Shown: piece after piece, positions 27,432 through 51,168 of the stretch
Position numbering within the stretch: the first letter of the stretch is position 1
How the letters are laid out: each line of letters opens with the position of its first letter
NCBI GenBank assembly: GCA_963823665.1
Contig: CAWGMQ010000006.1
Location: 1,024,001-1,088,000 of the forward strand
Source of the DNA: an uncultured Planctomycetota bacterium
GTDB taxonomy: Bacteria; Planctomycetota; Planctomycetia; Isosphaerales; Isosphaeraceae
Direction of reading: 5' to 3'
DNA: 64,000 bases
Translations under genes and position numbers: made by a program
The notes under the pieces: model-generated
Databases searched by the model: none
The model's input: only the letters and a program-made list of their open reading frames with translations
Told to the model about the DNA's origin: nothing

Positions 27432-27700
27432 CACGGAGTTCTCACCTTCCTGGAATTCCTCGGACGGATCTCAAAGTTGTGTGACCAGGGCGGTGCCGAA
27501 CGAGTGGCGCGAGCGCGGCCGCACCGCGGGGCGCGATGTCCCGATCCGCGCACGTCAAATCGTTTCTCTCGTCGGTTCCGGCTCAAGCCGTAGTTGCCCC
27601 GCTCACAGCGCAGCGCCGAACGACGCACCACCGAGTCGCAGCATGTCGCCCCATCCCGTTGCCACGTTCGTCGCTGATTCTTCTCGGCCTATGAGCGAAC

Positions 27701-27727
27701 TCCTGCGGTCTGTAAAGAAACGTTACA
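27701..27727 (-). promoter_or_regulatory. Putative ECF promoter TGTAAC-N15-GCAGGA driving giant protein 1
   Basis: Minus strand reads gccTGTAACgtttctttacagaccGCAGGAg. It is intergenic and about 270 nt upstream of ATG 27431. Confidence 0.75.
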
Positions 27728-27872
27728 GGCTGAACGCGAATTTTCGGGCTCGCGTCAAATGCACGGGCACCATCCGGGGCCGCGCCACCCAGACGCTCTG
27801 TGGACGTGTGTGCGCCCACGGCGACTCGAAAAATGCGCATTTTTGAAAGAATCTCGTTAGAGTAAATGAGCC

Positions 27873-27900
27873 TGTAACCTGGGCGAGGTGTTTCGCAGGA
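27873..27900 (+). promoter_or_regulatory. Putative autoregulatory ECF promoter TGTAAC-N16-GCAGGA
   Basis: Reads gccTGTAACctgggcgaggtgtttcGCAGGAag, directly upstream of the ECF sigma gene. Confidence 0.75.
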
Positions 27901-27920
27901 AGAGTAGCAGCGGGTCGCTC

Positions 27921-28568
27921 GTGGCGCAGCCGTTCGAAGATGCCGAAACCGAGGAACTGCTACGATGCGCGAGCGCGAGCGGAGCCGGCGAAGTTGCGCT
28001 TGAGCAGTTGCTCACGCGCCATCGAGACCGCCTTCGGCGGATGGTGGCCGTTCGCCTCGACCGCCGCCTCGCACCCCTGGTCGACCCTTCGGACGTGGTC
28101 CAGGAAGCCCTGGCCGACGCCAGCCGCAAGCTCGATGACTTCATCCGTGACCGCCCCCTGCCGTTCTATCCGTGGCTTCGCCGGCTCACCAGCGAGCGCA
28201 TCATCCAGTGCCATCGCCGCCACCTGGGCACCCAGAAGCGCGACGTCTCTCGCACCGATCGGCTGGATCGCCCCTTGCCCGACGAATCCGCAGCGGTTCT
28301 GGCGGACCGGCTGGCTGCGAGCGGAACATCGCCCAGCCAGCGCGTGGTGCGCGACGAACAAGCCGTTCGACTCCGCGAGGTGCTCGACCGCCTGGGCCGG
28401 AACGACCGCGAGGTCCTCGTGATGTGTTACCTGGAGGAGCTTTCGTTCGCCGAGATCGCCGTCGCGCTCGGCATCACCGAGAATGCCGCCAAGGTCCGCC
28501 ATTTCCGGGCCATGGAGCGAATCAGGAAGCTGATCGAATCCCAGGACTCGGGCGAGCTCGAACGATGA
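27921..28568 (+). CDS. ECF RNA polymerase sigma-70 factor, planctomycete kinase-associated type
   Basis: Region 2 reads LLTRHRDRLRRMVAVRL..DPSDVVQEAL..FYPWLRRL and region 4 reads DREVLVMCYLEELSFAEIAVALGITENAAKVRHFRA. The ORF track starts at 27888, but in-frame GTG 27921 is preferred because the promoter -10 lies at 27895-27900. The stop overlaps the next ATG (ATGA). Confidence 0.95.
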   Translation: MAQPFEDAETEELLRCASASGAGEVALEQLLTRHRDRLRRMVAVRLDRRLAPLVDPSDVVQEALADASRKLDDFIRDRPLPFYPWLRRLTSERIIQCHRRHLGTQKRDVSRTDRLDRPLPDESAAVLADRLAASGTSPSQRVVRDEQAVRLREVLDRLGRNDREVLVMCYLEELSFAEIAVALGITENAAKVRHFRAMERIRKLIESQDSGELER

Positions 28569-31500
28569 GCAATGGCTTCGAGACCGGCCGCGTGGACGAG
28601 CCCGATAGCGAAGACGAAGCGCTCCTGGTCGAGTGGGCCGCTGATTTGGCCGTGCGCATCCGGCAGGGCCAGCCCGTCGACTGGACCGAGCTCGGTAAAC
28701 AACATCCAGAGCAGGCCGACGCGCTCCGTCGGATGCTCCCTGCTTTTTCCTTGATGGCCCGCATGGGCGGCTCGGCGCATCGTGATGCAGTCCGCCGTTT
28801 TCCGGCCACCGATCCGTTCGTCGAATTCGGCTGTCTAGGCGACTACGAGCTCGGCCAGGAAGTCGGGCGCGGCGGCATGGGTGTTGTCTACGAGGGCTAC
28901 CAGATCTCGCTCAAGCGCCGGGTTGCACTCAAGATCTTGCCGGCGGCAGGTGCCCTCGACGCACGCCAGCTCCAGAGGTTCCAGATCGAGGCCCAGGCCG
29001 CCGCCGCGCTCCATCATCCCAATATCGTCCCGGTCTTCGCTGTCGGCACCGAGCGCGGCGTCCCTTTTTATGCGATGCAGTTCATCGAAGGGCACACGCT
29101 GGCCCAGGTAATCCGCGAAATGCGGCATCTGGAGGGCTTGGACACCGCCAAACCAACGAAGGCGTCCGATCTGACACGCGCCATTTTATGCGAGCAGTTC
29201 TCCGCGGAGCCCGAGCCGCGCGACAACACAGGGACCCCTCGCGAGCCACCCGAGCTGCCGGCTTTCACGGCACCAGGGTGGCGACGAGATTCCGACAGCT
29301 CCTCGGCCGGCCGGCAGAGCTTCATCCGCACAATCGCTCGTTTTGGAATCCAGACTGCCGACGCGCTCGAGCACGCCCACGGCCGCGGTATCTTGCACCG
29401 CGACATCAAGCCCTCCAACCTGATGATCGATCGCTCGGGCCACCTCTGGGTGACCGACTTTGGCCTGGCTCGCGTTCCCGGCGAGAGCAGCCTGACCTTG
29501 ACCGGTGACGTGCTCGGCACGCTGCGCTACATGAGCCCGGAGCAAGCCCTGGGCAAACGCCGCATACTCGATGAATCGAGCGACGTTTATTCGCTCGGAG
29601 CCACGCTCTACGAGCTCTTGACCTTGCGTCCCGCGTTTGCCGGTGACGATCGCCAGGAGGTGTTGCGGCGCATCGCTCAGGAGGAGCCGCGCCCTCCGCG
29701 CAAGCTGAACCGGGCGATTCCCGCTGCCCTTGAGACGATTGTCTTGAAGGCGATGGCCCGCGAACCGTCCGGTCGCTACGCGACGGCCGCCGCGCTGGGC
29801 GATGATCTTGCACGGTTCCTCGACGGCCGCCCGATTCTCGGCCGGCCGGTGCCACTCTGGCAACGCTCATTTGCCTGGGCCCGCCGCCGTCCGGCCGTGG
29901 CGGCGTTACTCTCGCTCGTGATCCTGCTGGCGTGCGGCCTGGTCGGCGGCGTCGCCGCGTGGGCGAGCTGGCTCTCCGGGCACAACCGCGAGCTCGAGAT
30001 CCAGATCGCCCGCGCCGACGCAAAGGAGCGCGAGGCTGACCGGCAGCAAAAGGTCGCCCAGGATCGCCAGCTACACGCAGACCGGCACCGCTACGCCGCG
30101 AGCCTTCGTCGCGCCCGTGAGGCGCTCGACGCCCGCCAGATCGAGCTGGCCCAGGATATCCTTCACGAGATCGAGCCCGGCACCGCGGCTGGCGGTGCCG
30201 ACTTCGCCTGGGGTTACCTCTGGCGGTATGCCAATCGCGAGTTCACCCAGCTTTGGGGCCACGAAGCCAGAGTGGCTAATTCGTTGATTTCCGACGACGG
30301 AAGCACGCTGGTCACTCGCGACATCACTGGCAAGATCCTCATGTGGACGCTCCGGCCCGGCATGGAGCCCGACCGTCCGCGCGCCCTGATCGCCGCTTCC
30401 AGAAGTAGAGACGGTGAGCTCGTCCCGAGCCTCTCGCCCGATGGCCGATACCTGGCAGTTGCTCAACCGGGCTTGCCGGTCCTCCACGTCGACCTTTTTG
30501 AAACAGCCTCCGGCCAGCGCGTGACCCGATTCCAGAGCGAGGCGTCCGGAAAACTCATCGCGTGTGCGTTCGACCCGGAGAGCCGACGGATGTTGTTGTT
30601 CGCGTCGCGTCCGGACGGGACGCAGGTGATCAGGTCGTGGACGATCGCCGAGCCCCAGAGCCAAGCTCACGTCTGGACGATCGAGAAAGGCACGTACGTC
30701 ATCCACGATACGCCCGCGCTCGGTCGATCGATCGCGGCGTGGAATGGCAAAACATTCAGGCTGTTCGACCCGTGGACCGGTGCACTCAAAGGTGCCTTGG
30801 ACGGATCACCGATCGGTAGCACCGAGTCGGTGAATCTCTTCGCCTTTTCCGACGACGCGCGTGTGCTTGCTGCGCACACCAGTGCCAATCGGGTGCAGTG
30901 GTGGGAACCGGGCTCGGGGCGTGCCCTGGCCGGCTTGCCGTCCTCTGGCGGCGTGCGGATGATGTGTATCAGCCCCCGCGGGACTTTTCTCGCGGTGCTG
31001 GACGACCGCGCACATGTGACCGTATTCAATCCATCGCGCAAGGAAAAAACGACTCTGGATCGGGGAACCGGAGACTACTCGTTACGTGGTGGTTCGCTCG
31101 CCTTCGCTACAGACGAAACTCTGCTGGCGATCGTGATCGACCCGATCCCGGGCGGGATTCAGCCGGCTGAGGTCTGGGATCTTGGCTCGATGCGAAGGGT
31201 CAATGTCTTCCCCGGCCGGAACGATACTGACAGCGTGACGTTCATTCCCGGCAGTCGATCGCTGGTTGCCACCGGCGGAACCAAGCCGAGAATCTGGCGT
31301 CTGGACCCTCCTCAATTGCCAGACGCCTTGCGCGGCCATACCGACGAGGCGTGGTCCGCGGCCTTCTCCCCCGACAGCAAGGTGCTCGCCACCGGCAGTG
31401 ACGACACTGACGAGCGCGAAACGATCAAGCTCTGGGATCCCGCTTCCGGCAGCCTTCTGGCCGGCTGGGTAGCCCATACGGCCACCGTCGCCTCTCTGGC

Positions 31501-32242
31501 GTTCAGCCCCGATGGGCGCTTTCTCGCATCGTCGAGCCTCGATTCGGGAAAGCCCGAGAACCCCAATGTGCAGATATGGGAGGTTGCATCGCGATCGCTG
31601 CTGGCGACCCTCTTGGGCCATGAAGGCTCGGTTCGCTCGCTGGCGTTCAGCCCCGACGGCAAACTGCTGGCCACCGCATGCGATGATGGATCAGTTCGCC
31701 TCTGGAACATGGCCGATCGATCGATCCGCGCAGTGCTGAAGGGGCACGCCACGTACGCTATCTCCGTCGCCTTCAGCCCCGACTCCGCTCGACTGGCTTC
31801 AGGGTCGAACGATGCGACGGTGAAGGTGTGGAGCGTCTCGAGCGGCGAGCTGCTTTCCACCCTCCAGCACGGCGCGAATGCCAACGCCGTCGCATTTTCG
31901 CCCGACGGATCGCTGCTGGCGGCGGCAGGCGACGACGGCCAGATCAAGCTGTGGAATCACGAAACAAAAGAATTGACGTCAACGATCTTCTCCGCGGCCG
32001 ATCAGCTCCGCTGCCTGGCGTTCACTCGCGACGGCCGTTACCTGACGGCCTCCGGTCGCGACAAAGTGATCCGCCTCTGGGATGTCACCACCGGTCAAGA
32101 ATCGCTGAGCCTGGCCGGCCACGAGGCGCAAGTGAACGCCCTGGCATTTTCGCCTGATGGCCGGATCCTGGCCTCATGCAGCCACGACGGAGCCGTCAAG
32201 CTCTGGCGTGCCGAGCCGATCGAGATGGTGCCGAGCCGCTGA
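28565..32242 (+). CDS. Hanks-type Ser/Thr protein kinase with transmembrane helix and WD40 repeats (1225 aa)
   Basis: Kinase motifs GRGGMGVVY, VALKIL, HRDIKPSN, DFGLAR, GTLRYMSPEQ. TM segment AVAALLSLVILLACGLVGGV. GH...AFSPDG...D.TVKLW repeats. Start at ATG 28565 overlaps the sigma stop. Confidence 0.95.
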   Translation: MSNGFETGRVDEPDSEDEALLVEWAADLAVRIRQGQPVDWTELGKQHPEQADALRRMLPAFSLMARMGGSAHRDAVRRFPATDPFVEFGCLGDYELGQEVGRGGMGVVYEGYQISLKRRVALKILPAAGALDARQLQRFQIEAQAAAALHHPNIVPVFAVGTERGVPFYAMQFIEGHTLAQVIREMRHLEGLDTAKPTKASDLTRAILCEQFSAEPEPRDNTGTPREPPELPAFTAPGWRRDSDSSSAGRQSFIRTIARFGIQTADALEHAHGRGILHRDIKPSNLMIDRSGHLWVTDFGLARVPGESSLTLTGDVLGTLRYMSPEQALGKRRILDESSDVYSLGATLYELLTLRPAFAGDDRQEVLRRIAQEEPRPPRKLNRAIPAALETIVLKAMAREPSGRYATAAALGDDLARFLDGRPILGRPVPLWQRSFAWARRRPAVAALLSLVILLACGLVGGVAAWASWLSGHNRELEIQIARADAKEREADRQQKVAQDRQLHADRHRYAASLRRAREALDARQIELAQDILHEIEPGTAAGGADFAWGYLWRYANREFTQLWGHEARVANSLISDDGSTLVTRDITGKILMWTLRPGMEPDRPRALIAASRSRDGELVPSLSPDGRYLAVAQPGLPVLHVDLFETASGQRVTRFQSEASGKLIACAFDPESRRMLLFASRPDGTQVIRSWTIAEPQSQAHVWTIEKGTYVIHDTPALGRSIAAWNGKTFRLFDPWTGALKGALDGSPIGSTESVNLFAFSDDARVLAAHTSANRVQWWEPGSGRALAGLPSSGGVRMMCISPRGTFLAVLDDRAHVTVFNPSRKEKTTLDRGTGDYSLRGGSLAFATDETLLAIVIDPIPGGIQPAEVWDLGSMRRVNVFPGRNDTDSVTFIPGSRSLVATGGTKPRIWRLDPPQLPDALRGHTDEAWSAAFSPDSKVLATGSDDTDERETIKLWDPASGSLLAGWVAHTATVASLAFSPDGRFLASSSLDSGKPENPNVQIWEVASRSLLATLLGHEGSVRSLAFSPDGKLLATACDDGSVRLWNMADRSIRAVLKGHATYAISVAFSPDSARLASGSNDATVKVWSVSSGELLSTLQHGANANAVAFSPDGSLLAAAGDDGQIKLWNHETKELTSTIFSAADQLRCLAFTRDGRYLTASGRDKVIRLWDVTTGQESLSLAGHEAQVNALAFSPDGRILASCSHDGAVKLWRAEPIEMVPSR

Positions 32243-32282
32243 ATCACAGAGGAATGGGAACGCACGAGGCCGGTGGGTTTGA

Positions 32283-36590: not shown

Positions 36591-36611
36591 CTGAGAGCGA
36601 CTCGGTTCGGA

Positions 36612-37193
36612 TCAATGTCCTTGCTTGAACGTGAGCGTCCCCTCACCGGTCCACCAGTATGCCGTGGGATTGGTGGATCCCAGCACGAAAGGTGCCGTCG
36701 CCGCGTACATGGTCCAGCTCCCGGTCACACCGGCGAATTTCCCCGTGCATGCGGGCAGGTACGGAACGAATTCGGCGAGAAACTGGGCGACATAGACGCC
36801 TTCACCCAGGTGGGGCATGGGGATGAGCTCGAACGTTCCCGGCTGGCTGGCACCGAATTGCGTGTTGCCGTAATAGCAGGCCAGGACATCCCCTTGCACG
36901 TCGATAAACTTGTACGGAACTGGGCTTCCAAACTCACCGGTGATGTCTCCGTTCTGCTCGAAATTCGCCGTATCGGTCGCGACTTCCCCTTCTCCGTAGT
37001 AGCCGAAGAGATCCGTCGCCAGGCCGATAGACCAGTGAGGTCGTGGTGCCTGGCCAGGCAACGGCAGGCCTTGGGGCGCGATTCCCTGACCGATGATCAC
37101 GAAAGGTACGGTCTGTGCTTGTGTCTGGTTCTGTGCAAGAGCCAGGGCGAGCGTGCAAGCGGCCAGGATGGCGAATCGTGGATTGCGAATCAT
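36612..37193 (-). CDS. Secreted hypothetical protein (193 aa), possibly a small beta-barrel
   Basis: ATG 37193 has GGAGG upstream. Signal peptide MIRNPRFAILAACTLALALA...QAQ. The mature part is beta-strand-rich with a TGKFAGVTG motif. Confidence 0.8.
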   Translation of the reverse strand: MIRNPRFAILAACTLALALAQNQTQAQTVPFVIIGQGIAPQGLPLPGQAPRPHWSIGLATDLFGYYGEGEVATDTANFEQNGDITGEFGSPVPYKFIDVQGDVLACYYGNTQFGASQPGTFELIPMPHLGEGVYVAQFLAEFVPYLPACTGKFAGVTGSWTMYAATAPFVLGSTNPTAYWWTGEGTLTFKQGH

Positions 37194-37291
37194 GCTGCGT
37201 CCTCCAGGTTGGTTCAGGGTATCGCGTCGAGCCACAAGAACGTTCCGGTGGCGCCGCCTTTACCGAGATTGAATCAGGGTGTGCAGTAGAA

Positions 37292-37318
37292 TCCTGCCAA
37301 CCGGCGGAAAAGGTTACA
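37292..37318 (-). promoter_or_regulatory. Putative ECF promoter TGTAAC-N15-GCAGGA for the secreted protein
   Basis: Minus strand reads cgTGTAACcttttccgccggttgGCAGGAt. The -35 element contains the TAA stop of the upstream kinase gene. Confidence 0.75.
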
Positions 37319-41366: not shown

Positions 41367-41449
41367 TGGCTTGCCTCGGTTCATGTTGCCTTCGATACGA
41401 CGGGCCTGAGAAGACCTCACGCCCCTGTTTTCTGCTCCGGCCAGTTCAG

Positions 41450-44400
41450 TTATGTGAAAGAGAGCCGTTCGGCCTCCGGAACGACCGCCCCGAGGTCGTC
41501 AAGCAGTTGCTGGCCGCGATGGCGGTATTCGTCGGCTTTTTCGGGGATGACGCAGGAGGCGTCGAGAAAGGCACGGGCCAACTCGTAGCGGGCGCCGTGC
41601 TTTCCGGCCGCGACGATCGATTGCTCGAAGTAGCGAGCCGCTCTCTTGGTCTTGCCGAGGGCGCAGGCGGCGCGGCCGCTCACACGAAGGGCGTGGGCCC
41701 CGTAGTTGGGGTACCGCCAGCCGAAGAAGCGAGCAACCCGAGCTTCGCGCCAAGCTTTAATGGCAATGGCTCGGCTCGGCCCGCCATCGGCAAGAGCCCA
41801 GCGGGGACCGAGCAGGCTCTCGACGAGCAATGGATAAGTCGGCGCCGCAAACTCAAAAGGGCAGTACGTTCGAATCGTCCGAGCCCTTGATTTCTCAAGC
41901 GCGGCACCAGCGCCGGAGTAGTCCGACGCCTGGAGGCGGACGAAGCCGAGATGGCCGTACGCGATCAGAAGCGCGAGTGAATCGCGGGTGATGAGCACGT
42001 CGACCGCGCGAGTCATCAGTTCGTTCGCTTCTTCGACCCGGCCGGCCCTCGCCAGGGCGTCGGCCTTGCCGTATTGCCCGTAAGCCAATGCCTCCGCGTC
42101 GCCACGCGCCTTGCCGGTTTGGATCTCGACCTCAGCCTCGACCAGCTCCATCGGGATGTCGCCACGCACCGCATAGAGATGTCGCAGCGTGTGGTGGGAG
42201 AAGAACCCCATCCAGTCGCCGACTTTGTCGAGAGTTCCGACCGCGTCGCGCAGCACCGTCTCGGCCTCGTTCAGCCGGGCGCTGAAGTAATGAACGCCGC
42301 CAACATGTCCTCTGGTCACTGCCTTCACGTCGACTCGATGGCAGGATTCCGCCGCTTTTTCGGCCCGGCGCATGCAGCCCTTCATGAACCAGCCGAGTGA
42401 GAACCAGCTCCAGCTATAGAAAATCTTCGAATAGCCCACGGCGACGACTTCGGGCTTCCCCGACTGTTTCGCCAGGGCCGCCGTCCGGTACAAAACGTAA
42501 CAAAAACTGAGTACGCTGGGCGGCACCAGGCCCATGCGGTAGTAAGTCGCGGTCGCGATCGCGACCCGCCGGTCGAAATCGGCCCGGCGCCTGTTAAAAG
42601 AGAGCCAGGATGGCATCATGTGGAAGTAAACGAACGATCGCCAGAGGCCGAAAAAGAGCCCCATCGGGCCACGAGGGCGAGGATATCCGAGCTCAGACAA
42701 CGCAAGACTGAAATGGCCCTTGGAGTCGCGGTAGTCGCCTTGCCGGTGAAATGCCGAACCGATGCCGTGGTGAGCGCTGGCTCGATCAAGATGGTCGCAG
42801 GCGTGCTCGAGGGCGCGTGTGTAAGCCCCGATCGCGTCGTCGAGCTGGCCCGACGAGCCGAACGCAGTGCCGAGCATGTCCCAGAGTTGATATCTCTTCG
42901 CCGCGTCGGCGTCCGAGGGCAAGAGCTGCTGGGCTTCTTTCAAATGGACGATTGCGTTGTTGAAGGCATAGGCATCGAGCGCCGCTTGGGCCGCTTCCAT
43001 TGTGTACGCGAATGCCTTGGACCGCTCGTCGCTTTCGCGGAAATGCTCGGCGAGCATGGCGGGAGCGACAGCCCGCCCCTGCGCCCGGCGCTGTTCCAGC
43101 AACTCGCCGACTCGCCGGTGCAGGCTCCGCCGGCGAGTGGCTGAGAGGTCGGCATAAGGCAACTCGTGCAGCAGGTCATGCACGAACTCGACGTGTCCCG
43201 GGTTTCCTGTCTCGCGAAACACGCGGCGCGGCAACAGCAGGTCAACGGCGTCGAGCACATCGGCCTCGCTAAGCTCGTGCAAGACGTCGCGGAGCAGGTC
43301 GATATCGACCACCGCCCCGATTACCGCCGCCGCGCCCACCACCTGCTGGACCTTCGCTGGCAGACCTTGCAAACGGAGTCGCATCACGTCGCGTACCGTC
43401 TCGGGTAGGTCCGTGGAATCGCCCGCCTCGGTCGACAGCACCCAGCCGCTCTCACCGTGGGTGATCGCCTGCTTGTCGTACCAGTCTCGAACGGTCTCGG
43501 CGACGAAGAAGGGGTTCCCGCCGCACAATGTGTAGACCCGGCCGACCAGGTCGACGGCCAGTTCCTCGGGCTGACAGTTCAAGCGCAACGCGATCAATTC
43601 ACGGGTCTCGCTCTCGGTCAATGGCGCCAGCACAAGCTCGAGAAGTTGACGTTGCTCGCGGAGCTGCGTCAGCAGGGCTTCGAGCGGCGCATAGCCGGTT
43701 CGGGCCGACGCTACGATCACCAGCTTTGGGGCCCTTGTCGACCCATCGGCTGAGCGCCGTGTGGTGGCCAATGCCGCGGCCAGGTGCCGCAACAGGTCGA
43801 GCGAGCTCTTGTCGGCCCATTGCAGATCTTCGAAGCTCAGGCAGACCGGCTGGAAGGTGGCGATTTCGAGGAAGAAAGCGGTCAGTGCGCGGTAGATGTA
43901 GTCGGCCTCGCGGCCGAAATCAACCTGCTGGTAAGCCTCGCCCGGCAGATACTTGCGGAGCTCAGGCGCGATGCGAAGGAGCTCGCCACGATAGTCGTTG
44001 ACGACGCCTAGCAGGCGCACCAGCGATGCTGCGGGGAGCCCGGCGACGTGGGTGCCGGTGAGGTCCGCGTCGGCGGCCGTGACCTCGCGTCGCTCCTGGA
44101 GTTTCAGCTCGGCGATGAGCTGTCTGATGATCTCGACGAAGGGCTGGAAGGGGGACAAGTCGCCGTCGAAGCACCTTCCCTCATAGACCTGGCAGCCGTG
44201 GCCGCGCGCGATGCGTTCGGCCTCCTGGACCACGCTGCTCTTGCCGATTCCGGGCTCGCCGCTGACGACGAGCAACGAGGCCGGGATCTCGTCGCGAGTC
44301 TCGGCCAAGCCCCTCCTGAGGCAGCGGCGCAGGACGTCGTTGATCAACTCCTGCTCGCTGGCGCGGCAGACGAAGCCGGTGACCGACAATCCTGGCCTTA

Positions 44401-45406
44401 GCGCCGGGATTGAGACTCCCGACACGGCGGTTTTGTCGTCGATGCCGAGGAATGCAGCGATCGCCGAGCGAAGAAGGCCGGCGGATTCCGGGCGGCGCCT
44501 GGGCTCCTTGCGGAGATACTTCATCACCACGTCGGCGATCGGTGCCGGTAATTCGGGGTTAACCTCGAAAAGCGGCTTCGGCTTTTCATTGAGCTGGGCC
44601 TGCATCAAGGGACGCATGCCGCCCAGCCGCGCCTCTGGAAATGCGTAGCGTCCGCTCAGGACCTCGTAGACAACGAGCCCCAGACAGTAAAGGTCTGCGC
44701 GGTGATCAAGCTCATCGAGGTTGATCTGCTCCGGCGCACAGTATGCGACTGTCCCCACGAACCCGGCCTCGGCGGAGAGCGACGACTTGACGCCGTAGTA
44801 CTTTGCCAGGCCGAAGTCCATCAGCCGCGTCTCGAAGTGGCGCGAGCCGTCATCTCGAGTGGCGGGGCGGACCAGAATGTTCGACGGCTTGACGTCACGA
44901 TGCACGATGCCGTGCCCGTGGATGTAATCCAGAGCGTGGGTCAGTTGCAGAAGCGGGTCGAGTCGTTCGAGTAGTGGCCGGCTCGAGATGCTGGTGATGG
45001 GCTGTCCCAAGAACAGCTCCATCGTGAAGAAGGGACCGCCGCCGAGGTCACCGTAATCGTAGACGCCCAGGCAATGTGGATGCCGCAATGCCGAGAGCGA
45101 ACGAAACTCGCGTTCGAAGCGACGGCGAGCAGTCCCGGCTATGGTTCCCTTCATGAGCTTGAGGGCAACGTCCCGTCCGTCGCGTGAGTCGCGCGCGCGA
45201 TAGACGACGCCCATGCCCCCCTCGCCGAGCTTCGCTCCAATCTGGAACCGCTCGTGCCGGAGCCCGGCGAAGTCCTCGCTCGGCGAATGTTCCTCGGGTT
45301 CGCTGTCATGCCCAGACGTCGCCGAAACGTCGAGCGCGATCGACGGTCCCTGGAACGATCTCGTGCCGTCGAGCTGCGGGTCAACGACAGTTTGGGCTCG
45401 TGTCAT
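41450..45406 (-). CDS. Ser/Thr kinase - STAND/AAA_16-type ATPase - TPR protein, paralogue 2
   Basis: Same motifs as paralogue 3. Probable start MTRAQ at 45406, overlapping the end of paralogue 1 (ORF track: 45493). Confidence 0.93.
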   Translation of the reverse strand: MTRAQTVVDPQLDGTRSFQGPSIALDVSATSGHDSEPEEHSPSEDFAGLRHERFQIGAKLGEGGMGVVYRARDSRDGRDVALKLMKGTIAGTARRRFEREFRSLSALRHPHCLGVYDYGDLGGGPFFTMELFLGQPITSISSRPLLERLDPLLQLTHALDYIHGHGIVHRDVKPSNILVRPATRDDGSRHFETRLMDFGLAKYYGVKSSLSAEAGFVGTVAYCAPEQINLDELDHRADLYCLGLVVYEVLSGRYAFPEARLGGMRPLMQAQLNEKPKPLFEVNPELPAPIADVVMKYLRKEPRRRPESAGLLRSAIAAFLGIDDKTAVSGVSIPALRPGLSVTGFVCRASEQELINDVLRRCLRRGLAETRDEIPASLLVVSGEPGIGKSSVVQEAERIARGHGCQVYEGRCFDGDLSPFQPFVEIIRQLIAELKLQERREVTAADADLTGTHVAGLPAASLVRLLGVVNDYRGELLRIAPELRKYLPGEAYQQVDFGREADYIYRALTAFFLEIATFQPVCLSFEDLQWADKSSLDLLRHLAAALATTRRSADGSTRAPKLVIVASARTGYAPLEALLTQLREQRQLLELVLAPLTESETRELIALRLNCQPEELAVDLVGRVYTLCGGNPFFVAETVRDWYDKQAITHGESGWVLSTEAGDSTDLPETVRDVMRLRLQGLPAKVQQVVGAAAVIGAVVDIDLLRDVLHELSEADVLDAVDLLLPRRVFRETGNPGHVEFVHDLLHELPYADLSATRRRSLHRRVGELLEQRRAQGRAVAPAMLAEHFRESDERSKAFAYTMEAAQAALDAYAFNNAIVHLKEAQQLLPSDADAAKRYQLWDMLGTAFGSSGQLDDAIGAYTRALEHACDHLDRASAHHGIGSAFHRQGDYRDSKGHFSLALSELGYPRPRGPMGLFFGLWRSFVYFHMMPSWLSFNRRRADFDRRVAIATATYYRMGLVPPSVLSFCYVLYRTAALAKQSGKPEVVAVGYSKIFYSWSWFSLGWFMKGCMRRAEKAAESCHRVDVKAVTRGHVGGVHYFSARLNEAETVLRDAVGTLDKVGDWMGFFSHHTLRHLYAVRGDIPMELVEAEVEIQTGKARGDAEALAYGQYGKADALARAGRVEEANELMTRAVDVLITRDSLALLIAYGHLGFVRLQASDYSGAGAALEKSRARTIRTYCPFEFAAPTYPLLVESLLGPRWALADGGPSRAIAIKAWREARVARFFGWRYPNYGAHALRVSGRAACALGKTKRAARYFEQSIVAAGKHGARYELARAFLDASCVIPEKADEYRHRGQQLLDDLGAVVPEAERLSFT

Positions 45407-48400
45407 CGGCTCGCCTCGGCGGGGGTGCGGCACGCTTGAGTGCTTGGTTTGTGATACGTTCCGCTTCGGGCACGACGGCCCCGAGCTCGTCAAGCAGTTG
45501 CTGGCCGCGATGGCGGTATTCGTCGGCTTTTTCGGGGATCACGCGGGATGCGTCGAGAAAAGCACGGGCCAGATCGTAGCGGGCGCCGAGCTTTCCGGCC
45601 GCGACGATCGATTGCTCGAAGTAGCGAGCCGCTCTCTTGGTCTTGCCGAGGGCGCAGGCGGCGCGGCCGCTCACGCGAAGGGCGTGGGCCCCGTAGTTGG
45701 GGTATCGCCAACCGACGAAGCGGGCAACGCGAGCCTCACGCCAGGCTTTACGGGCAACGGCTCGGCTTGGTCCGTCATCCGCGTCGGCCCAGCGGGGGCC
45801 CAGCAGGCTCTCGACGAGCAAAGGAAAAGTGGAGCCTGCCCACTCAAACGGGCAGTATCTCCGTATGGTTCGATCCCTTGATTTCTCGAGTGCGGCACGA
45901 GCTCCGGAGTAGTCAGACGCCTGGAGGCGGACGAAGCCCAGATGGCCGTACGCGATATTGAGCGCGAATGAATCGCGGGCGATGAGCACTGCGACCGCGG
46001 GAATCATCAGTTCGTGCGCCTCTTCGACACGGCCGGCCCTGGCGAGTGCGTCGGCCTTGCCGTACTGTCCATAAGCCAATGCTTCCGCGTCGCCGCGCGC
46101 TGTGCCGGTTTCGATCTCCAGTTCAGCCTCCGCGAGCTCCATCGGGATGTCGCCACGGACGGCATAGAGGTGTCTCAGTGTGTGGTGGGAGAACAAACCA
46201 AACCAGTCACCGACCTTGTCGAGAGTTCCGATCGCTTCGCGTAGATCCGCCTCGCCCTGATCCAGCCGGCCGCTGTAGTAATGCACGCCACCAATGTGCG
46301 CTTTCGTCAGCGCCATCACCTCGACCCGACGACAGGATTCCGCAGCCTTCTCGGCCCGACGCATAAAATCGTTCATGAACGAGCCGAGAGAGAACATGCC
46401 GTAGCTCCAGAAAATCTTTGAGTAGCCCGCGGCGATGAGTTCTGGCTTCCCAGACTTCTTCGCCAGGGCGGCGATCCGGTATGAGCTGTAACAATAACTC
46501 AGGACGCTCTTCGTGCAGCTAGTAGCCAAGCGGTGGTAGGTCGTGGTCGCGATCGCGACCCGTCGGTCGAAATCGGGCCGGGTCCTGTCAAGAGCGAGCC
46601 CGGATGGGATCAAGTGGAAGTAAACAAACGAGCGCCAGAGCCCGGAAACGAGTCCCATCGCACTATGAGGAAGAGGATATCCGACCTCAGACAAGGCAAG
46701 GCTGAAATGGCGGCCGGAGTCGTCGTAGGCGCCTTTCCGCTGAAACGCCGAACCGATGCCGTGGTGAGCGCTGGCTCGATCAAGATGGTTGCCGGCGTGC
46801 TCGAGAGCGTGTGTGTAAGCCCCGATCGCGTCGTCGAGCTGGCCCGACGAGCCGAATGCGGTGGCGAGCATGTCCCAGATGCGATATTTCGTGGCCGCGT
46901 CGGCGTCGGCGGGCAAAAGCTGCTGGGCGTCTTTCAACTGGACGACCGCGTTGTTGAAGGCATAGGCGTTGAGCGCCGCTCCGGCCGCTTCCATCGTGTA
47001 CGCGAAGGCCTTGGACCGCTCGTCGCTATGGCGGAAATGGTCGGCGAGGACGGCGGGCGCGACGGCTCGCCCCTGCGCCCGGCGCTGTTCCAGCAACTCA
47101 CCGACTCGCCGGTGCAAACTCCGCCGACGAGTCGCTGAGAGGTCGGCATAGGGCAACTCGTGCAGCAGGTCGTGCACGAACTCGACGTGTCCCGGGTTTC
47201 CGGTCTCGCGAAACACGCGGCGCGGCAACAGCAGGTCAACGGCGTCGAGCACATCGGCTTCGCCAAGCTCCTTCAAGACGTCGCTGAGCAGGTCGATATC
47301 GACCACCGCCCCGATCACAGCCGCCGCGCCCACCACCTGCTGGACCTTCGTTGGCAGACCCTGCAAACGCAGTCGCATCACGTCGCGCACGGTCTCGGGC
47401 AGGTCGGTGGAATCGCCCGCCTCGGTCGACAGCACCCAGCCGCTCTCGCCGCGGGTGATTGCCTGCTTGTCGTACCACTCCCGAACGGTCTCGGCGACGA
47501 AGAACGGGTTCCCGCCGCACAACGTGTTGACGCGGCCGACCAGGTCGGCAGTCAGTTCCTCGGGCGGACAGTTCAAGCGCAACGCGATCAATTCACGGGT
47601 CTCGCTCTCGGTCAACGGTGCCAGCAGAAGCTCGAGAAGTTGACGTTGCTCGCGGAGCTGTACGAGTAGAGCTTCCAGCGACGCATGGCCGGTTCGGGCC
47701 GACGCTACGATCACCAGCCTTGGGGCCCTTGTCGACCCATCGGCTGAGCGCCGTGCGGTGGCCAATGCGGCAGCCAGATGCCGCAGCAGGTCGAGCGAGC
47801 TCTTGTCGGCCCATTGCAGATCTTCGAAGCTCAGGCAGACCGGCTGGAAGGTGGCGATTTCGAGGAAGAAAGCGGTCAGCGCGCGGTAGATGTAGTCGGC
47901 CTCGCGGCCGAAATCAACCTGCTGGTACGCCTCGCCCGGCAGATACTTGCGGAGCTCAGGCGCGATGCGGAGGAGCTCGCCGCGATAGTCGTTGACGATG
48001 CCCAGCAGGCGCACCAGCGATGCTGCGGGGAGCCCGGCGACGTGGGTGCCGGTGAGGTCCGCGTCGGCGGCCGTGACCTCGCGTCGCTCCTGGAGTTTCA
48101 GCTCGGCGATGAGCTGTCTGATGATCTCGACGAAGGGCTGGAAGGGGGACAAGTTGCCGTCGAAGCACCTACCCTCATAGACCTGGCAGCCGTGGCCGCG
48201 CGCGATGCGTTCGGCCTCCTGGACCACGCTGCTCTTGCCGATTCCGGGCTCGCCGCTGACCACGATCAACGAGGCCGGGATCTCGTCGCGAGTCTCGGCC
48301 AAGCCAGGCCGGAGGCAGCGGCGCAGGACGTCGTTGATCAACTCCTGCTCGCTGGCGCGGCAGACGAAGCCGGTGACCGACAATCCTGGCCGCAGCGCCG

Positions 48401-49403
48401 GGATTGATACTCCCGAGACGGCGGTTTTGTCGTCGATGCCGAGGAATGCAGCGATCGCCGAGCGGAGAAGGCCGGCGGATTCCGGGCGGCGCCTGGGCTC
48501 CTTGCGGAGATACTTCATCACCACGTCGGCGATCGGTGCCGGTAATTCGGGGTTAACCTCGAAAAGCGGCTTCGGCTTTTCATTGAGCTGGGCCTGCATC
48601 AAGGGACGCATGCCGCCCAGCCGCGCCTCTGGAAATGCGTAGCGTCCGCTCAGGACCTCGTAGACGACGAGCCCCAGGCAGTACAGATCAGCGCGGTGAT
48701 CAAGCTCGTCGAGGTTGATCTGCTCGGGGGCACAGTATGCGACTGTCCCCACGAAACCGGCCTCGGCCGAGAGCGACGACTTGACGCCGTAATACTTTGC
48801 CAGTCCGAAGTCCATTAGCCGCGTCTCGAAGTGACGCGAGCCGTCATCTCGAGTGGCGGGGCGGACCAGAATGTTCGACGGCTTGACGTCGCGGTGCACG
48901 ATGCCGTGCCCGTGGATGTAGTCGAGGGCGTGTGTGAGCTGCAGCAATGGGTCGAAACGTTCGAGAAGCGGCCGGCTCGAGATGCTGGTGATGGGTTGTC
49001 CCAAGAACAGCTCCATCGTGAAGAAGGGACCGCCGCCCAGGTCACCGTAGTCGTAAACGCCCAGGCAATGGGGATGCTTGAGCGCCGAGAGCGAACGAAA
49101 CTCGCGTTCGAAGCGGCGGCGAGCAGTCCCGGCGATGGTTCCCTTCATGAGCTTGAGGGCGACGTCCCGTCCGTCGCGCGCATCGCGCGCGCGATAGACG
49201 ACACCCATGCCCCCCTCGCCGAGCTTCGCTCCAATCTGGAACCGCTCGTGCCTCAAGTCGGCGACGGCGTTTTCTTGAGGAGCGGATTCCTCCCAATCGG
49301 AGCTCGCCTGGGACGACAACAAAACAAGGGATTCACGAGCCGCGACGGACCTCGTCTCGTCCGGGGATTGGTCAATCGTCGCCGCGGCGCGCGAGAATGG
49401 CAT
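45381..49403 (-). CDS. Ser/Thr kinase - STAND/AAA_16-type ATPase - TPR protein, paralogue 1 (1340 aa)
   Basis: Same motifs as paralogues 2 and 3. Starts 30 nt after the DUF1559 stop. Confidence 0.93.
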   Translation of the reverse strand: MPFSRAAATIDQSPDETRSVAARESLVLLSSQASSDWEESAPQENAVADLRHERFQIGAKLGEGGMGVVYRARDARDGRDVALKLMKGTIAGTARRRFEREFRSLSALKHPHCLGVYDYGDLGGGPFFTMELFLGQPITSISSRPLLERFDPLLQLTHALDYIHGHGIVHRDVKPSNILVRPATRDDGSRHFETRLMDFGLAKYYGVKSSLSAEAGFVGTVAYCAPEQINLDELDHRADLYCLGLVVYEVLSGRYAFPEARLGGMRPLMQAQLNEKPKPLFEVNPELPAPIADVVMKYLRKEPRRRPESAGLLRSAIAAFLGIDDKTAVSGVSIPALRPGLSVTGFVCRASEQELINDVLRRCLRPGLAETRDEIPASLIVVSGEPGIGKSSVVQEAERIARGHGCQVYEGRCFDGNLSPFQPFVEIIRQLIAELKLQERREVTAADADLTGTHVAGLPAASLVRLLGIVNDYRGELLRIAPELRKYLPGEAYQQVDFGREADYIYRALTAFFLEIATFQPVCLSFEDLQWADKSSLDLLRHLAAALATARRSADGSTRAPRLVIVASARTGHASLEALLVQLREQRQLLELLLAPLTESETRELIALRLNCPPEELTADLVGRVNTLCGGNPFFVAETVREWYDKQAITRGESGWVLSTEAGDSTDLPETVRDVMRLRLQGLPTKVQQVVGAAAVIGAVVDIDLLSDVLKELGEADVLDAVDLLLPRRVFRETGNPGHVEFVHDLLHELPYADLSATRRRSLHRRVGELLEQRRAQGRAVAPAVLADHFRHSDERSKAFAYTMEAAGAALNAYAFNNAVVQLKDAQQLLPADADAATKYRIWDMLATAFGSSGQLDDAIGAYTHALEHAGNHLDRASAHHGIGSAFQRKGAYDDSGRHFSLALSEVGYPLPHSAMGLVSGLWRSFVYFHLIPSGLALDRTRPDFDRRVAIATTTYHRLATSCTKSVLSYCYSSYRIAALAKKSGKPELIAAGYSKIFWSYGMFSLGSFMNDFMRRAEKAAESCRRVEVMALTKAHIGGVHYYSGRLDQGEADLREAIGTLDKVGDWFGLFSHHTLRHLYAVRGDIPMELAEAELEIETGTARGDAEALAYGQYGKADALARAGRVEEAHELMIPAVAVLIARDSFALNIAYGHLGFVRLQASDYSGARAALEKSRDRTIRRYCPFEWAGSTFPLLVESLLGPRWADADDGPSRAVARKAWREARVARFVGWRYPNYGAHALRVSGRAACALGKTKRAARYFEQSIVAAGKLGARYDLARAFLDASRVIPEKADEYRHRGQQLLDELGAVVPEAERITNQALKRAAPPPRRADDTSPNCR

Positions 49404-49433
49404 CGATGTACCTGGATTAGTTCTGGCTCGACA

Positions 49434-50471
49434 TCAGTACGAATCCGACGACAGGACCTCGCCCCCCTGGATCGAAGAAAGGCTGACCCACACGTTGGGA
49501 TCGACCGCGTTTTTGACGAATCGCACCGAGCCGTCACCAAAGCCGGAGTTAACCCCGCCGGGGTGGCGGCTGCGTGAGCCGGCGTAGAAGTCGTAGTAGG
49601 GGAACGCCACGTTGATGCACGGAAGGCCATGGCCGGGGTCGTTCACGCAGAAACCAACCCCGATTCGGTCCCCGCCACCGCCGGGAGGATCGGCGACGCC
49701 GTAATAGTCCCGCAGCCCGTTCGGGGTAAACCGCGTTGAAAAAGCGCCCGCCAGTGTCCAGATCGCTCCCCGCGCATCGTTCGTCTCACCTTGCATGACC
49801 TCGCTCGTGAAGATCGTGGAGCTCGTGCCGTCGGTGACCGCGGCAAGCCGGACGGGCTGATGACCGAAGGCAGAGAGCCGGTAGACGACCGGGAGGTTCA
49901 GGGTGGCGGTGTTGCCCGCGCCTGGCGAATTCAGTTGGCTCCAGATGGTGTTTCCCCAGCTCACTACGTAATTGCCTCGAGGCGAAGTGATCAAAGCGCC
50001 GTTGGTCGGCCAGGTCACCAAGAGTACGTTCGAATTGTCGCTGGGGCACTGCATCGTCGCGATCTTTGTGCCGAAAACCGTGGAATTGATGCTGAACCCC
50101 AAGGGCATCCCGGTACTGTCGGGAACCCCTTCCAGGCCGATCGAGAAATTGAAAGCGTTGGACAAGGCTTGCTGCTCGAGTTGTGGCAGCAGCTCGGTGA
50201 GCCAGTTGGTGTTCTGGCAGCCCTCGAAGAACCCGGGCAAGGGGAGGCCGGGCAATGGAGTCCAGACTCGACCAATCGGCAGTGAGCCGAAGACCGACTC
50301 ATAATTATGGATCGCCAGCCCAAGTTGCTTTACGTTGTTGACGCACTGCGCCCGCCGAGCCGCCTCGCGAGCGGCCTGGACGGCAGGAAGCAGCAAGGCG
50401 ATCAAGACCGCGATAATCGCGATCACCACCAGAAGCTCAATCAGCGTGAAACCTTGACGTCGTTTCCACAT
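49434..50471 (-). CDS. DUF1559 family prepilin-type N-terminal cleavage/methylation protein with H-X9-DG motif (345 aa)
   Basis: N-terminus MWKRRQG^FTLIELLVVIAIIAVLIALLLPAVQAAREAARRAQCVNNVKQLGLAIHNY, plus AVTDGTSSTI and SRHPGGVNSGFGDGSVRF. The true start is ATG 50471, not 50720. Confidence 0.95.
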   Translation of the reverse strand: MWKRRQGFTLIELLVVIAIIAVLIALLLPAVQAAREAARRAQCVNNVKQLGLAIHNYESVFGSLPIGRVWTPLPGLPLPGFFEGCQNTNWLTELLPQLEQQALSNAFNFSIGLEGVPDSTGMPLGFSINSTVFGTKIATMQCPSDNSNVLLVTWPTNGALITSPRGNYVVSWGNTIWSQLNSPGAGNTATLNLPVVYRLSAFGHQPVRLAAVTDGTSSTIFTSEVMQGETNDARGAIWTLAGAFSTRFTPNGLRDYYGVADPPGGGGDRIGVGFCVNDPGHGLPCINVAFPYYDFYAGSRSRHPGGVNSGFGDGSVRFVKNAVDPNVWVSLSSIQGGEVLSSDSY

Positions 50472-50601
50472 CGAATTGCCTCGATTCTTATCTCCAATCA
50501 TTACCCCCGCTCCGCAACGAGCGAGATCACACCGATTTGCGGCTCGTCTCGCTCGCGGGCCGCCGTTTTCATCAACGCCGCCGCTCGCCCTCTCAGGCAA
50601 C

Positions 50602-50628
50602 TCCTGCAAATCGCGGCAAGAGGTTACA
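50602..50628 (-). promoter_or_regulatory. Putative ECF promoter TGTAAC-N15-GCAGGA for the DUF1559 - triple kinase operon
   Basis: Minus strand reads ccTGTAACctcttgccgcgatttGCAGGAg, about 130 nt upstream of ATG 50471. Confidence 0.75.
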
Positions 50629-50741: not shown

Positions 50742-51110
50742 TCAATAATCGTCGGCAGAGACGAGCTTGGGATTGGCGAGCGGGGGAGGAGCCGGATCCG
50801 AACAAACCGGATACCACGGCCGCGCCGCCGCGGCCTGATACTTCACGCTCAGCACACGGTGATACTCCGCCGCACTCAACTGAAGATTCCTCTCCGCTGC
50901 CCGCTCAGGCGCGATTCGCTCGGCTCTGATGAAGCCGCAAAGACAGAAACTGGCGTCCATTTCGAGCTGATGGCCCGCGGCCGCGTGATAGGACGCTTTC
51001 TCACGAAATGCTTGGGCCCGCCGTTGGTTCAGAACGCCACCGCCGGACAGAACGGCAACGACCGCGACGGCGGCCATCAGCGCTCGAATGTCGACCCGAA
51101 AGCGAGGCAC
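50742..51110 (-). CDS. Small membrane-anchored hypothetical protein (122 aa)
   Basis: GTG start, then PRFRVDIRALMAAVAVVAVL (basic plus hydrophobic) and a C-terminal KYQAAAARPWYPVCSDPAPP. I recall this pattern from multicopy Isosphaeraceae hypothetical proteins. Confidence 0.7.
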   Translation of the reverse strand: MPRFRVDIRALMAAVAVVAVLSGGGVLNQRRAQAFREKASYHAAAGHQLEMDASFCLCGFIRAERIAPERAAERNLQLSAAEYHRVLSVKYQAAAARPWYPVCSDPAPPPLANPKLVSADDY

Positions 51111-51168
51111 CGACCATCCCCCGAAAATTCCCGTGAACGGAACCGCTGTCAATTCAATCAATTTTAGC

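Follow-up and report, generated by a model that had tools for sequence, protein, structure and literature searches.

The 64,000-nt stretch of planctomycete DNA analysed here (the window) contains four exact copies, and no more, of a bipartite motif, TGTAAC-N15/16-GCAGGA. Judged from sequence, each copy is most likely (a probability of roughly 85%) the −35 and −10 box pair of a promoter recognised by the ECF sigma factor of 27921–28568, which would thereby drive its own operon together with three neighbouring units. The predicted system, in which an ECF promoter is autoregulated and serves a local regulon, is of the kinase-linked ECF62 type and is both well-defined and new; it is also an ordinary bacterial switch that follows the standard logic of ECF autoregulation and introduces no new regulatory principle.

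The Motif in the Window and in the Genome

The four copies are found at the places and on the strands given in the first-pass annotation, and each lies upstream of, and is oriented into, a transcription unit, as had been described there:

27701..27727, minus strand: motif copy 1 (N15), exact match; predicted to serve giant exoprotein gene 1 as a divergent promoter, leaving a leader of 266 nt
27873..27900, plus strand: motif copy 2 (TGTAAC-N16-GCAGGA), exact match; predicted autoregulated promoter of the sigma-kinase-kinase operon
37292..37318, minus strand: motif copy 3 (N15), exact match; predicted promoter of the gene for a 193-aa secreted protein
50602..50628, minus strand: motif copy 4 (N15), exact match; predicted to drive the DUF1559 gene and, following it, the three STAND kinases

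None of 100 dinucleotide-preserving shuffles of the window contains any copy, and base composition predicts 0.0085 copies per window and 2.2 per genome. The left hexamer, TGTAAC, occurs six times in the window (shuffle mean 6.7), four times within motif copies and twice on its own, at 3179 and 46487, the two lone sites already listed by the annotation. Its extended consensus TGTAACcT holds for three of the four copies, which continue with CT, while the fourth continues with GT. The spacer is N15 in three copies and N16 in the copy preceding the sigma gene. From the last base of GCAGGA it is 20 nt to the GTG start codon of the sigma gene (27921), 98 nt to the start of the secreted 193-aa protein (37193), 130 nt to that of the DUF1559 gene (50471) and 266 nt to that of giant gene 1 (27434); leaders of 98–266 nt leave space for further promoters. 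The stop codon of the STAND kinase gene upstream of motif copy 3 is the TAA within the TGTAAC of that copy.

A scan of the whole genome (16.46 Mb) yields seven copies versus two of the reversed control motif. Four are those of the window, a second divergent pair accounts for two more and is located on the same contig at a distance of 346 kb, and the seventh lies on another contig, antisense within a long open reading frame. Six of the seven copies thus fall into two clusters, and the lone antisense copy is the number predicted by chance. In relatives, to which the annotation had proposed to extend the scan, the strict motif shows no overall enrichment: across 100 of them it has 67 hits versus about 94 for the reversed control (hand sums), so most isolated hits there are chance. 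The start of giant gene 2, for which a further copy had been considered, lies about 21.4 kb beyond the window and carries no copy.

Genes of the Island

The genes adjoining the four copies encode the sigma factor, five kinases and exported proteins:

3..27434, minus strand: giant exoprotein gene 1, in five overlapping frames; it extends 5.7 kb beyond the window start, about 33 kb in total
27921..28568, plus strand: ECF sigma factor, 215 aa, GTG start; Pfam Sigma70_r2, r4 and r4_2
28565..32242, plus strand: receptor Ser/Thr kinase 1; Pkinase and WD40 propellers, one hydrophobic segment (residues 444–472), N-terminal head of ~55 aa
32283..36590, plus strand: receptor Ser/Thr kinase 2, paralogous to kinase 1 and built alike, but with a larger number of WD40 blades
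36612..37193, minus strand: sec193, the secreted 193-aa protein, with a signal peptide
37314..49403, minus strand: three tandem cytoplasmic STAND kinases (Pkinase, AAA_16 NTPase and TPR), with no hydrophobic segment
49434..50471, minus strand: DUF1559 protein whose N-terminus bears a methylation motif of the prepilin type; PF07596 (SBP_bac_10, E 1.8e-43), PF07963 (N_methyl) and TIGR04294 (H-X9-DG)

The nearest curated model for the sigma factor is TIGR02984 (Sig-70_plancto1), which it matches with 173 bits, below the cutoff of 183.75. The start codon of kinase 1 overlaps the sigma stop codon as ATGA, and kinase 2, whose single hydrophobic segment spans residues 444–464, begins 40 nt past kinase 1. 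Since the gaps between neighbours are only −26 to +30 nt, the STAND kinases are probably co-transcribed with the DUF1559 gene; the operon structure of both units (DUF1559 with three STAND kinases, sigma with two kinases) is deduced solely from gaps of −26 to +40 nt. In the head of the kinases (about 90 aa) there is neither a Cys/His cluster nor a Pfam match, hence an N-terminal zinc finger is absent; an N-terminal head of about 55 residues that belongs to no family is conserved in every kinase linked to this sigma clade.

Giant exoprotein 1 begins with an Arg-rich stretch followed by LESLEARTLL and contains Ig-like, He_PIG, cadherin-like, CARDB, dockerin and RHS-repeat domains; its gene, being read in five frames, may be broken or mis-assembled. 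No family in Pfam or NCBIfam accommodates sec193, and its 199 homologous clusters are all unnamed. Its structure model (pLDDT 91.4) has 2q03_B as the best structural match (Z 12.0, rmsd 2.5 over 121 residues), and a beta-barrel of the allene-oxide-cyclase/dirigent/DUF3224 type is predicted on this basis.

Conservation in Relatives

In seven relatives (G035, G055, G011, G073, G012, G014 and G040), an exact motif ends 18–25 nt before the sigma orthologue (51–88% identity). Two more orthologues are preceded by a motif with one mismatch (TGTAAT in G096, GGTAAC in G025), so that 9 of the 11 orthologues in the fetched regions carry it; the motif is degenerate in G045, and none was seen before the orthologue in G010. 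As the G045 orthologue has lost its own copy yet kept copies at target genes, autoregulation is not obligatory. Among 30 loci picked by sigma similarity alone, GCAGGA stands behind a TGTAAC-like box (at most one mismatch) in 10, and in six of the seven with a sigma identity of at least 66%; the chance of such a box pair is about 5e-6 per gene. Of 120 relatives, seven have divergent pairs (minus then plus, less than 200 bp apart), and this genome has two such pairs; in relatives the partner copy commonly lies 60–180 bp from that on the sigma side.

Copies also precede the same kinds of target genes elsewhere: sec193 homologues in five relatives (G035, G014, G045, G025 and G019), DUF1559 genes in four (directly in G073, and ahead of an operon holding such a gene in G055, G011 and G045), giant or LExLExR-type exoproteins in three, and members of the PEP-CTERM family in four, although the regions scored were chosen for clustered or consensus-like hits, which biases the count of copies lying upstream of a gene. 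In the same-genus relative G035, an orthologous copy with its leader stands before a giant-protein N-terminus (L050 10223–10249), and in G045 the DUF1559-STAND kinase pair also occurs after sec193. The conserved target set consists almost wholly of exported proteins.

The second locus of this genome comprises a copy of the divergent promoter pair together with the first ~52 sigma codons, which run in frame into the 5' end of a large gene for a secreted protein, an arrangement suggesting promoter duplication as the way in which the regulon expands. A duplication that took 52 sigma codons along could also mean that the copies are functionless leftovers of duplicated intergenic DNA, the more so as copy 3 and the promoters of paralogues have part of the spacer in common. 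Across genera, however, nearly only the boxes stay constant. In an alignment of 13 upstream regions, nine of the ten invariant or nearly invariant columns fall within TGTAA and GCAGGA, the tenth being G102, 12 nt beyond the right box, whereas mean column identity, spacers and flanks included, is down to 42%; this conservation persists to about 51% sigma protein identity. An origin as leftover DNA is, hence, the most improbable of the explanations considered, and the boxes are better read as promoter elements.

The Right-Hand Box and the Sigma Phylogeny

The two closest sigma paralogues of this genome (53% identity) keep TGTAAC but are preceded by TGTAACCTTTTCCGCCGTTTG-GGAAGG, a sequence that occurs only twice in 16.46 Mb, before precisely those two genes (control 0). 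On a tree of 37 sigma factors, the label GCAGGA takes 4 changes versus 11.0 when shuffled, and none of 500 shuffles is as low; it marks five of the six rows of the clade of the window's sigma and none of the 14 rows in the clade that holds three other sigma paralogues of this genome. All 12 scored GCAGGA promoters pair with the sigma-2 sequence YPWL[RH]R and all seven GGAAGG-like ones with AWLRQ, a covariation that draws on few independent clades; many sigma factors with YPWL[RH]R lack GCAGGA upstream.

These observations bear on whether the promoters are read by another ECF paralogue, the adjacency to this sigma gene being coincidental or part of a cascade. The genome offers 65 ECF matches at E<=1e-10, and since related paralogues have the same −35 box, TGTAAC(C)TTT, some cross-recognition at −35 is plausible. 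Against this, the motif is fixed 18–25 nt before the orthologues of this very sigma factor across genera, and the right box tracks its clade, while the box of the nearest paralogues is found only at their own genes. Control by another paralogue is accordingly unlikely, and the sigma factor encoded at 27921–28568 is favoured as the reader. The claim of the annotation that the local sigma controls nearly the whole island thus finds support of a comparative kind: fixed distance to the sigma orthologues, the same targets in other genera, clustering, and a box that follows phylogeny.

Comparison with Known Systems

The annotation correctly set GCAGGA apart from the usual CGT-type −10. It was found as an ECF −10 neither in the part of the ECF-classification supplement covered here nor by literature searches, and its −10 role rests, consequently, on position and covariation. 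The left box is familiar: Bacillus subtilis SigX has the identical −35 hexamer (TGTAAC), combined with another −10 (CGWC), in an unrelated organism and with an unrelated regulon (PMC12153292, in part).

The closest parallel in layout is BcrS/AbcS of Brucella melitensis (ECF16), described, in the sections of the report used here (PMC8315932), as a divergent autoregulated ECF promoter pair with a −35 of TGTAACCTTT, one promoter serving the sigma gene, its counterpart an adjacent secreted or envelope unit. The second box lies at the same distance, with (T/C)GTAAC-N17-CGAA there and TGTAAC-N16/17-CAGGA here. The −10 differs (GCGAA(A/T) versus GCAGGA), as do the regulator, which is a membrane anti-sigma factor there and kinases here, and the phylum, Proteobacteria in the case of Brucella; the transcription start sites of BcrS/AbcS have been mapped, whereas the promoters here are predicted from sequence.

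All 33 exact sites collected have the form TGTAAC(C)(T)TT, with GCAGGA(T) as the second box after N15/16. A non-sigma transcription factor, e.g., a kinase-controlled regulator, might instead bind these boxes near promoters of another type, as GCAGGA is not a −10 element described in the sources covered and the five kinases of the locus could feed another regulator. Such a factor is, however, hard to reconcile with a site that is asymmetric (neither palindrome nor direct repeat) and always oriented toward the downstream gene, whose left half is a classic ECF −35 with a T-tract and whose spacing equals that of the mapped ECF16 promoters, as far as the report on these was used. Moreover, a Pfam scan of ten window genes returned the sigma as the sole DNA-binding regulator, and a search around motif copy 3 found no sigma-70-type promoter. 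We regard a non-sigma factor as very unlikely, slightly more so than another paralogue, and retain the ECF promoter reading.

ECF62 (ECFSTK4) is the kinase-linked ECF group of Planctomycetes, for which, according to the portions of the reference classification used here, no conserved promoter motif was predictable (Casas-Pastor et al. 2021, PMC7826278). The present locus resembles it, by kinase architecture and gene order rather than by the ECF Hub group HMM, in its planctomycete-type sigma, the Ser/Thr kinase at position +1 with one membrane segment and WD40 repeats, the latter a trait of the main ECF62 subgroups, and the lack of an obvious anti-sigma gene. It differs in that the present analysis delimits a conserved motif and a set of targets for one clade, and in that the s1–s3 kinases are described, within the same portions, as carrying an N-terminal zinc finger that is missing from the kinases here.

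A sigma gene adjoining the gene of a membrane Hanks-type kinase, whose activation of the sigma is either presumed or demonstrated, is also found in EcfK/PknS of Xanthomonas citri and EcfP/PknT of Vibrio parahaemolyticus (ECF43; PMC13147305, in part). In ECF43 sigma factors, according to the same part of that source, the acidic DxxD of region 2.2 is replaced by uncharged residues and a phospho-Thr (QTTA). The sigma factor of the window retains the canonical sigma-2.2 motif DPSDVVQE, with D55 (at least 90%), D58 and Q61 conserved among 29 sequences; since this motif is intact and conserved, the ECF43 mechanism is not indicated. Assignment to the ECF43 type was rejected, the exchange of DxxDxxQE for uncharged residues with a conserved Thr being absent. 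By analogy with T106 of EcfK, the conserved linker ASGTSPSQ is a candidate phosphorylation site.

A Predicted Surface-Remodelling Circuit

In the proposed mechanism, two membrane kinases with outward WD40 propellers would activate the sigma factor, probably via phosphorylation at a site other than that used in ECF43. RNA polymerase carrying this sigma would then begin transcription a few bases past GCAGGA, driving the sigma-kinase-kinase operon itself, giant exoprotein 1, the sec193 barrel protein, and the DUF1559 pseudopilin with the three STAND kinases. The circuit would act as a positive-feedback switch remodelling the set of secreted and surface proteins.

A more detailed version is tentative and, in our estimation, rather doubtful. 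The ~55-residue kinase head might be a sigma-docking (anti-sigma-like) domain by which the WD40 receptor kinase holds and phosphorylates the sigma, perhaps at the linker ASGTSPSQ. The locus might then be a positive-feedback surface-sensing switch deploying an exoprotein of >10,000 residues, a pseudopilin, a secreted dirigent-like barrel and three cytoplasmic STAND kinases, and it might recruit new genes through duplications covering both its promoter and the sigma gene's 5' end.

Significance

Planctomycetes abound in kinase-linked ECF sigma factors, and we know of none from this phylum with a defined promoter or regulon. For a group without a known promoter, the locus and its relatives yield a concrete predicted one, TGTAAC(C)TTT-N11/12-GCAGGA(T), and point to two sigma-2 residues showing covariation with the −10 box. 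GCAGGA and GGAAGG constitute a natural pair of closely related, apparently orthogonal promoters, and reporter assays in a heterologous host offer a direct test of the system.

Motif Copies in the Window and in the Genome

The bipartite motif TGTAAC-N15/16-GCAGGA, whose left and right boxes are the predicted −35 and −10 elements of an ECF sigma factor, has four exact matches in the 64 kb window, at the positions and on the strands claimed in the first-pass annotation, while 0 of 100 dinucleotide-preserving shuffles contained any. At the base composition of this DNA (65.2% G+C), chance would give 0.0085 copies in a window and 2.2 in the genome. TGTAAC alone is found six times in the window (shuffle mean 6.7), a count in line with the earlier remark that two lone hexamers, at 3179 and 46487, lack the second box.

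Features of the putative regulon in the window
27701-27727, minus strand, motif copy 1, exact match
27873-27900, plus strand, motif copy 2, exact match
37292-37318, minus strand, motif copy 3, exact match
50602-50628, minus strand, motif copy 4, exact match
27921-28568, plus strand, ECF sigma factor with Sigma70_r2 and r4
28565-28850 and 32283-32570, plus strand, kinase heads, LLVEWAAELAxRxxxGxxVDxxxLxxxHPExAExLRRLLPA

The genome-wide scan proposed in the first-pass annotation, run on the assembly of 16.46 Mb in 12 contigs, returned seven copies versus two for the reversed control: four in the window, two that form a further divergent pair elsewhere on the window's contig, at a distance of 346 kb, and one on another contig, lying antisense inside a long ORF, as chance predicts. 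The extended consensus is cc-TGTAAC(C/G)(T)TT ... tt(c)-GCAGGA-t(t). Relaxing the pattern to KGTAAY-N15/16-RCAGGA gave 22 matches versus 11 in the control; since none of the 15 extra ones resembles the extended consensus, no further sites are claimed, and the predicted regulon in this genome thus comprises six promoters at two loci.

Genes Downstream of the Motif Copies

All four copies lie upstream of a putative transcription unit and are oriented into it, as had been proposed, with leaders of 20 nt (sigma gene), 266 nt (giant gene 1), 98 nt (a gene for a 193-aa secreted protein) and 130 nt (the DUF1559 gene). The best curated model for the sigma factor is TIGR02984 ("Planctomycetaceae-specific subfamily 1"), at 173 bits just below the cutoff of 183.75. 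The stop codon of the sigma gene overlaps the start codon of the first kinase gene (ATGA), and the two genes that follow the sigma gene encode paralogous Ser/Thr kinases, each with a conserved head at the N-terminus, then the kinase domain, a single hydrophobic segment and a set of WD40 propellers. Convergent with these receptor kinases is the gene of the 193-aa protein, for which there is no named family. Tightly packed upstream of that gene on the minus strand, with gaps of −26 to +30 nt, are the genes of a prepilin-like DUF1559 protein and of three STAND-type kinases (Pkinase-AAA_16-TPR); the last of these kinases ends with the TAA that lies within motif copy 3. Around this copy, scans revealed no site resembling a sigma-70 promoter and one resembling a terminator, a result within shuffle expectation. 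The window has no Rfam match at gathering thresholds.

Just upstream of copy 4, a 158-aa ORF (50742-51218, minus strand) encodes a hydrophobic segment and has neither a family nor a motif copy of its own. A 77-aa ORF (51228-51461, minus strand) without a Pfam match precedes a remnant of 10 codons, MKRGDVVLLD-stop (about 51200-51232, minus strand), that resembles the start of a MazF/PemK-type toxin; together they may represent the decay of a toxin-antitoxin pair lying between giant gene 2 and the predicted DUF1559 promoter.

Giant gene 1 (3-27434, minus strand) is divergent from the sigma gene, spans about 33 kb in five overlapping frames and extends 5.7 kb beyond the window start. Its product contains Ig-like, He_PIG, cadherin-like, CARDB and dockerin domains along with a few RHS-repeat matches. 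A reading as an Rhs toxin was dropped, given only one RHS_repeat match and a weak DUF6531 match; no toxin domain was found in the last 1,894 residues. Giant gene 2 (51704-64000, minus strand, and on past the window) covers about 34 kb in six overlapping frames and starts about 21.4 kb past the window end. In both giant genes, the frame breaks reflect either true frameshifts or misassembly of repeats. The start of giant gene 2 had also been named as a place to scan for the motif: across 40 kb (window coordinates 64001-104000) there is neither a GTAAC-N14-18-CAGGA pattern nor a position-weight-matrix match of at least 16 bits.

Large exported proteins share an N-terminus made up of an Arg-rich stretch followed by L-E-x-L-E-x-R-x-(L/V)-L, encoded at 27300-27434 (minus strand), at about 85300-85430 (minus strand) beyond the window, and in the fetched loci L060, L062 and L063. 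It occurs on genes behind the motif, but also on genes lacking it, such as giant gene 2.

Conservation of the Predicted Sigma Promoter in Relatives

In a scan of 100 genomes from this family, matches to the strict motif show no overall enrichment (67, in 42 genomes, versus about 94 for the reversed control). The matches are, however, clustered, with minus-then-plus pairs less than 200 bp apart in G055, G011, G073, G012, G014 and G040; a scan of 20 further genomes added one divergent pair in G109, so that 7 of 120 relatives carry such pairs. Same-strand clusters are found in G035 (of the same genus), G045, G096 and G025. In 20 kb regions fetched around each clustered place, an exact copy ends 18–25 nt before the start of a sigma orthologue (51–88% identity to the window sigma) in G035, G055, G011, G073, G012, G014 and G040. 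The scan of relatives suggested earlier revealed the motif to be kept before these sigma orthologues. One-mismatch elements precede the sigma gene in G096 (TGTAAT) and G025 (GGTAAC), the element is degenerate in G045, and none was seen in the fetched region of G010.

To avoid selecting loci by the motif itself, the 30 closest matches to the sigma within the family were sampled. Of these 30 loci, 10 carry, no more than 75 nt from the start, GCAGGA preceded by a TGTAAC-like box with one mismatch or none; where the sigma has at least 66% identity, six of seven do. The chance of this arrangement at one gene is about 5e-6. When 13 upstream regions were aligned (mean column identity 42%), nine of the ten invariant or nearly invariant columns fell within TGTAA and GCAGGA, the tenth being G102, 12 nt past GCAGGA. 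The alignment shows a clean two-box footprint.

Between the predicted divergent promoters lies a semi-conserved block (27825-27845), aaaaatgcgcat in the window and GAAAGATCGCGCAC in the relatives G035, G045, G011 and G055, which precedes the −35 box ahead of the sigma gene by 27–45 nt, the window's value being 27 nt.

Recurrent Predicted Targets and a Second Locus

The predicted targets recur in relatives. Homologues of the 193-aa secreted protein have the motif in front of them in G035, G014, G045, G025 and G019. A copy stands directly before a DUF1559 homologue in G073, and DUF1559 is found inside an operon downstream of a copy in G055, G011 and G045, in the last of these followed by a STAND kinase as in the window. 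Copies also stand before giant or otherwise exported proteins that bear the Arg-rich LExLExR N-terminus (G035, G025 and G096) and before PEP-CTERM proteins (G011, G055, G096 and G021); the PEP-CTERM proteins of the first three genomes form one family of about 230 aa, with no member in the window. At 23 of the 27 exact sites in these regions, homology or Pfam gave an identity for the next gene in the direction of the motif (the other four are ORF-level calls), a count biased by the choice of regions with clustered or consensus-like matches.

In the genome under study, the second divergent pair lies at C6:1397413-1397503 (L063:9840-10104), 346 kb from the pair in the window. Past its minus copy, at an identical 21-nt offset, stands a GTG, and then come about 52 codons with homology to the N-terminus of the sigma; they continue in frame into an exported protein of 1,192 aa, at its N-terminus. 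The plus copy faces a Kelch/ricin-lectin protein. The locus looks like a promoter that was duplicated and captured.

Form of the Predicted Promoter and Specificity of the Right Box

The left box equals the −35 of Bacillus subtilis SigX as quoted in PMC12153292, and likewise that of BcrS, an ECF16 sigma factor of Brucella, for which PMC8315932 gives two divergent promoters with mapped transcription starts (TGTAACCTTTTT...GCGAA(A/T)) and the consensus (T/C)GTAAC-N17-CGAA. By the spacing of these mapped promoters, GCAGGA occupies exactly the position of a mapped ECF −10. In several relatives, a GGAGG ribosome-binding sequence begins 7–12 nt past GCAGGA, which fits a transcription start a few bases past the box. 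GCAGGA as an ECF element was not found in the searched part of the ECF-classification supplement (PMC7826278). Among the matches listed by a literature search for GCAGGA, ECF and sigma, none was on Planctomycetes and all were apparently unrelated, as the hexamer is common in primer sequences.

The genome holds 65 ECF matches at E ≤ 1e-10, of which the nearest to the window sigma are only 53–54% identical. The two nearest paralogues (contig 5; loci L009, L010, L121 and L122) have TGTAACCTTTTCCGCCGTTTG-GGAAGG upstream, a sequence found exactly twice in the genome, at these two genes (control 0); its −35 box is identical to that of the motif, but the second box is different. The spacer of these paralogue promoters is partly identical to that of motif copy 3. 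On a maximum-likelihood tree of 37 sigma factors, the GCAGGA label requires four changes versus 11.0 when shuffled, and 0 of 500 shuffles were as low: GCAGGA is present in five of six rows of the window's clade (support 100/99) and in 0 of 14 rows of the clade with three of the genome's other paralogues. Within sigma region 2, YPWL[RH]R accompanies all 12 scored GCAGGA promoters and AWLRQ all seven promoters with GGAAGG-like boxes. This covariation with the −10 box is suggestive only, because the AWLRQ sigmas all fall into a single clade and GCAGGA is absent upstream of many sigmas with YPWL[RH]R.

Possible Control of the Sigma Factor and Overall Reading

By gene architecture, the sigma module is a candidate member of ECF62, for which the literature describes a planctomycete sigma followed at +1 by a kinase that has one membrane helix and WD40 repeats. 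In ECF43, according to PMC13147305, the acidic DxxD of region 2.2 is lost and a phospho-Thr serves instead, whereas DPSDVVQE is conserved in the window sigma and its group; the ECF43 mechanism is, therefore, not indicated. The conserved linker ASGTSPSQ, in which P138 is invariant, is a candidate phosphorylation site by analogy with T106 of the ECF43 sigma EcfK. Every kinase beside this sigma group (30 loci) carries, before the kinase domain, a conserved head of about 55 residues with no Pfam match, which may serve to dock the sigma.

The 193-aa protein has relatives in at least 199 clusters, which make up an unnamed family, and is predicted to be a secreted beta-barrel (pLDDT 91.4). Foldseek against the PDB returned weak matches only (best 6ooc, TM about 0.3). 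A VIA wide search gave as best match the DUF3224-like 2q03_B (Z 12.0, rmsd 2.5 over 121 residues), followed by allene oxide cyclase (Z 10.1) and dirigent proteins (Z 9.2–9.5), with outer-membrane barrels in a similar Z range; the fold by itself does not point to a function.

Taken as a whole, comparative genomics (the sigma-promoter footprint, the recurrent targets and the clade-specific box) gives good support to the local ECF regulon first proposed: the predicted ECF promoter would be autoregulated, and the regulon, local and conserved, would consist of exported proteins and kinases.
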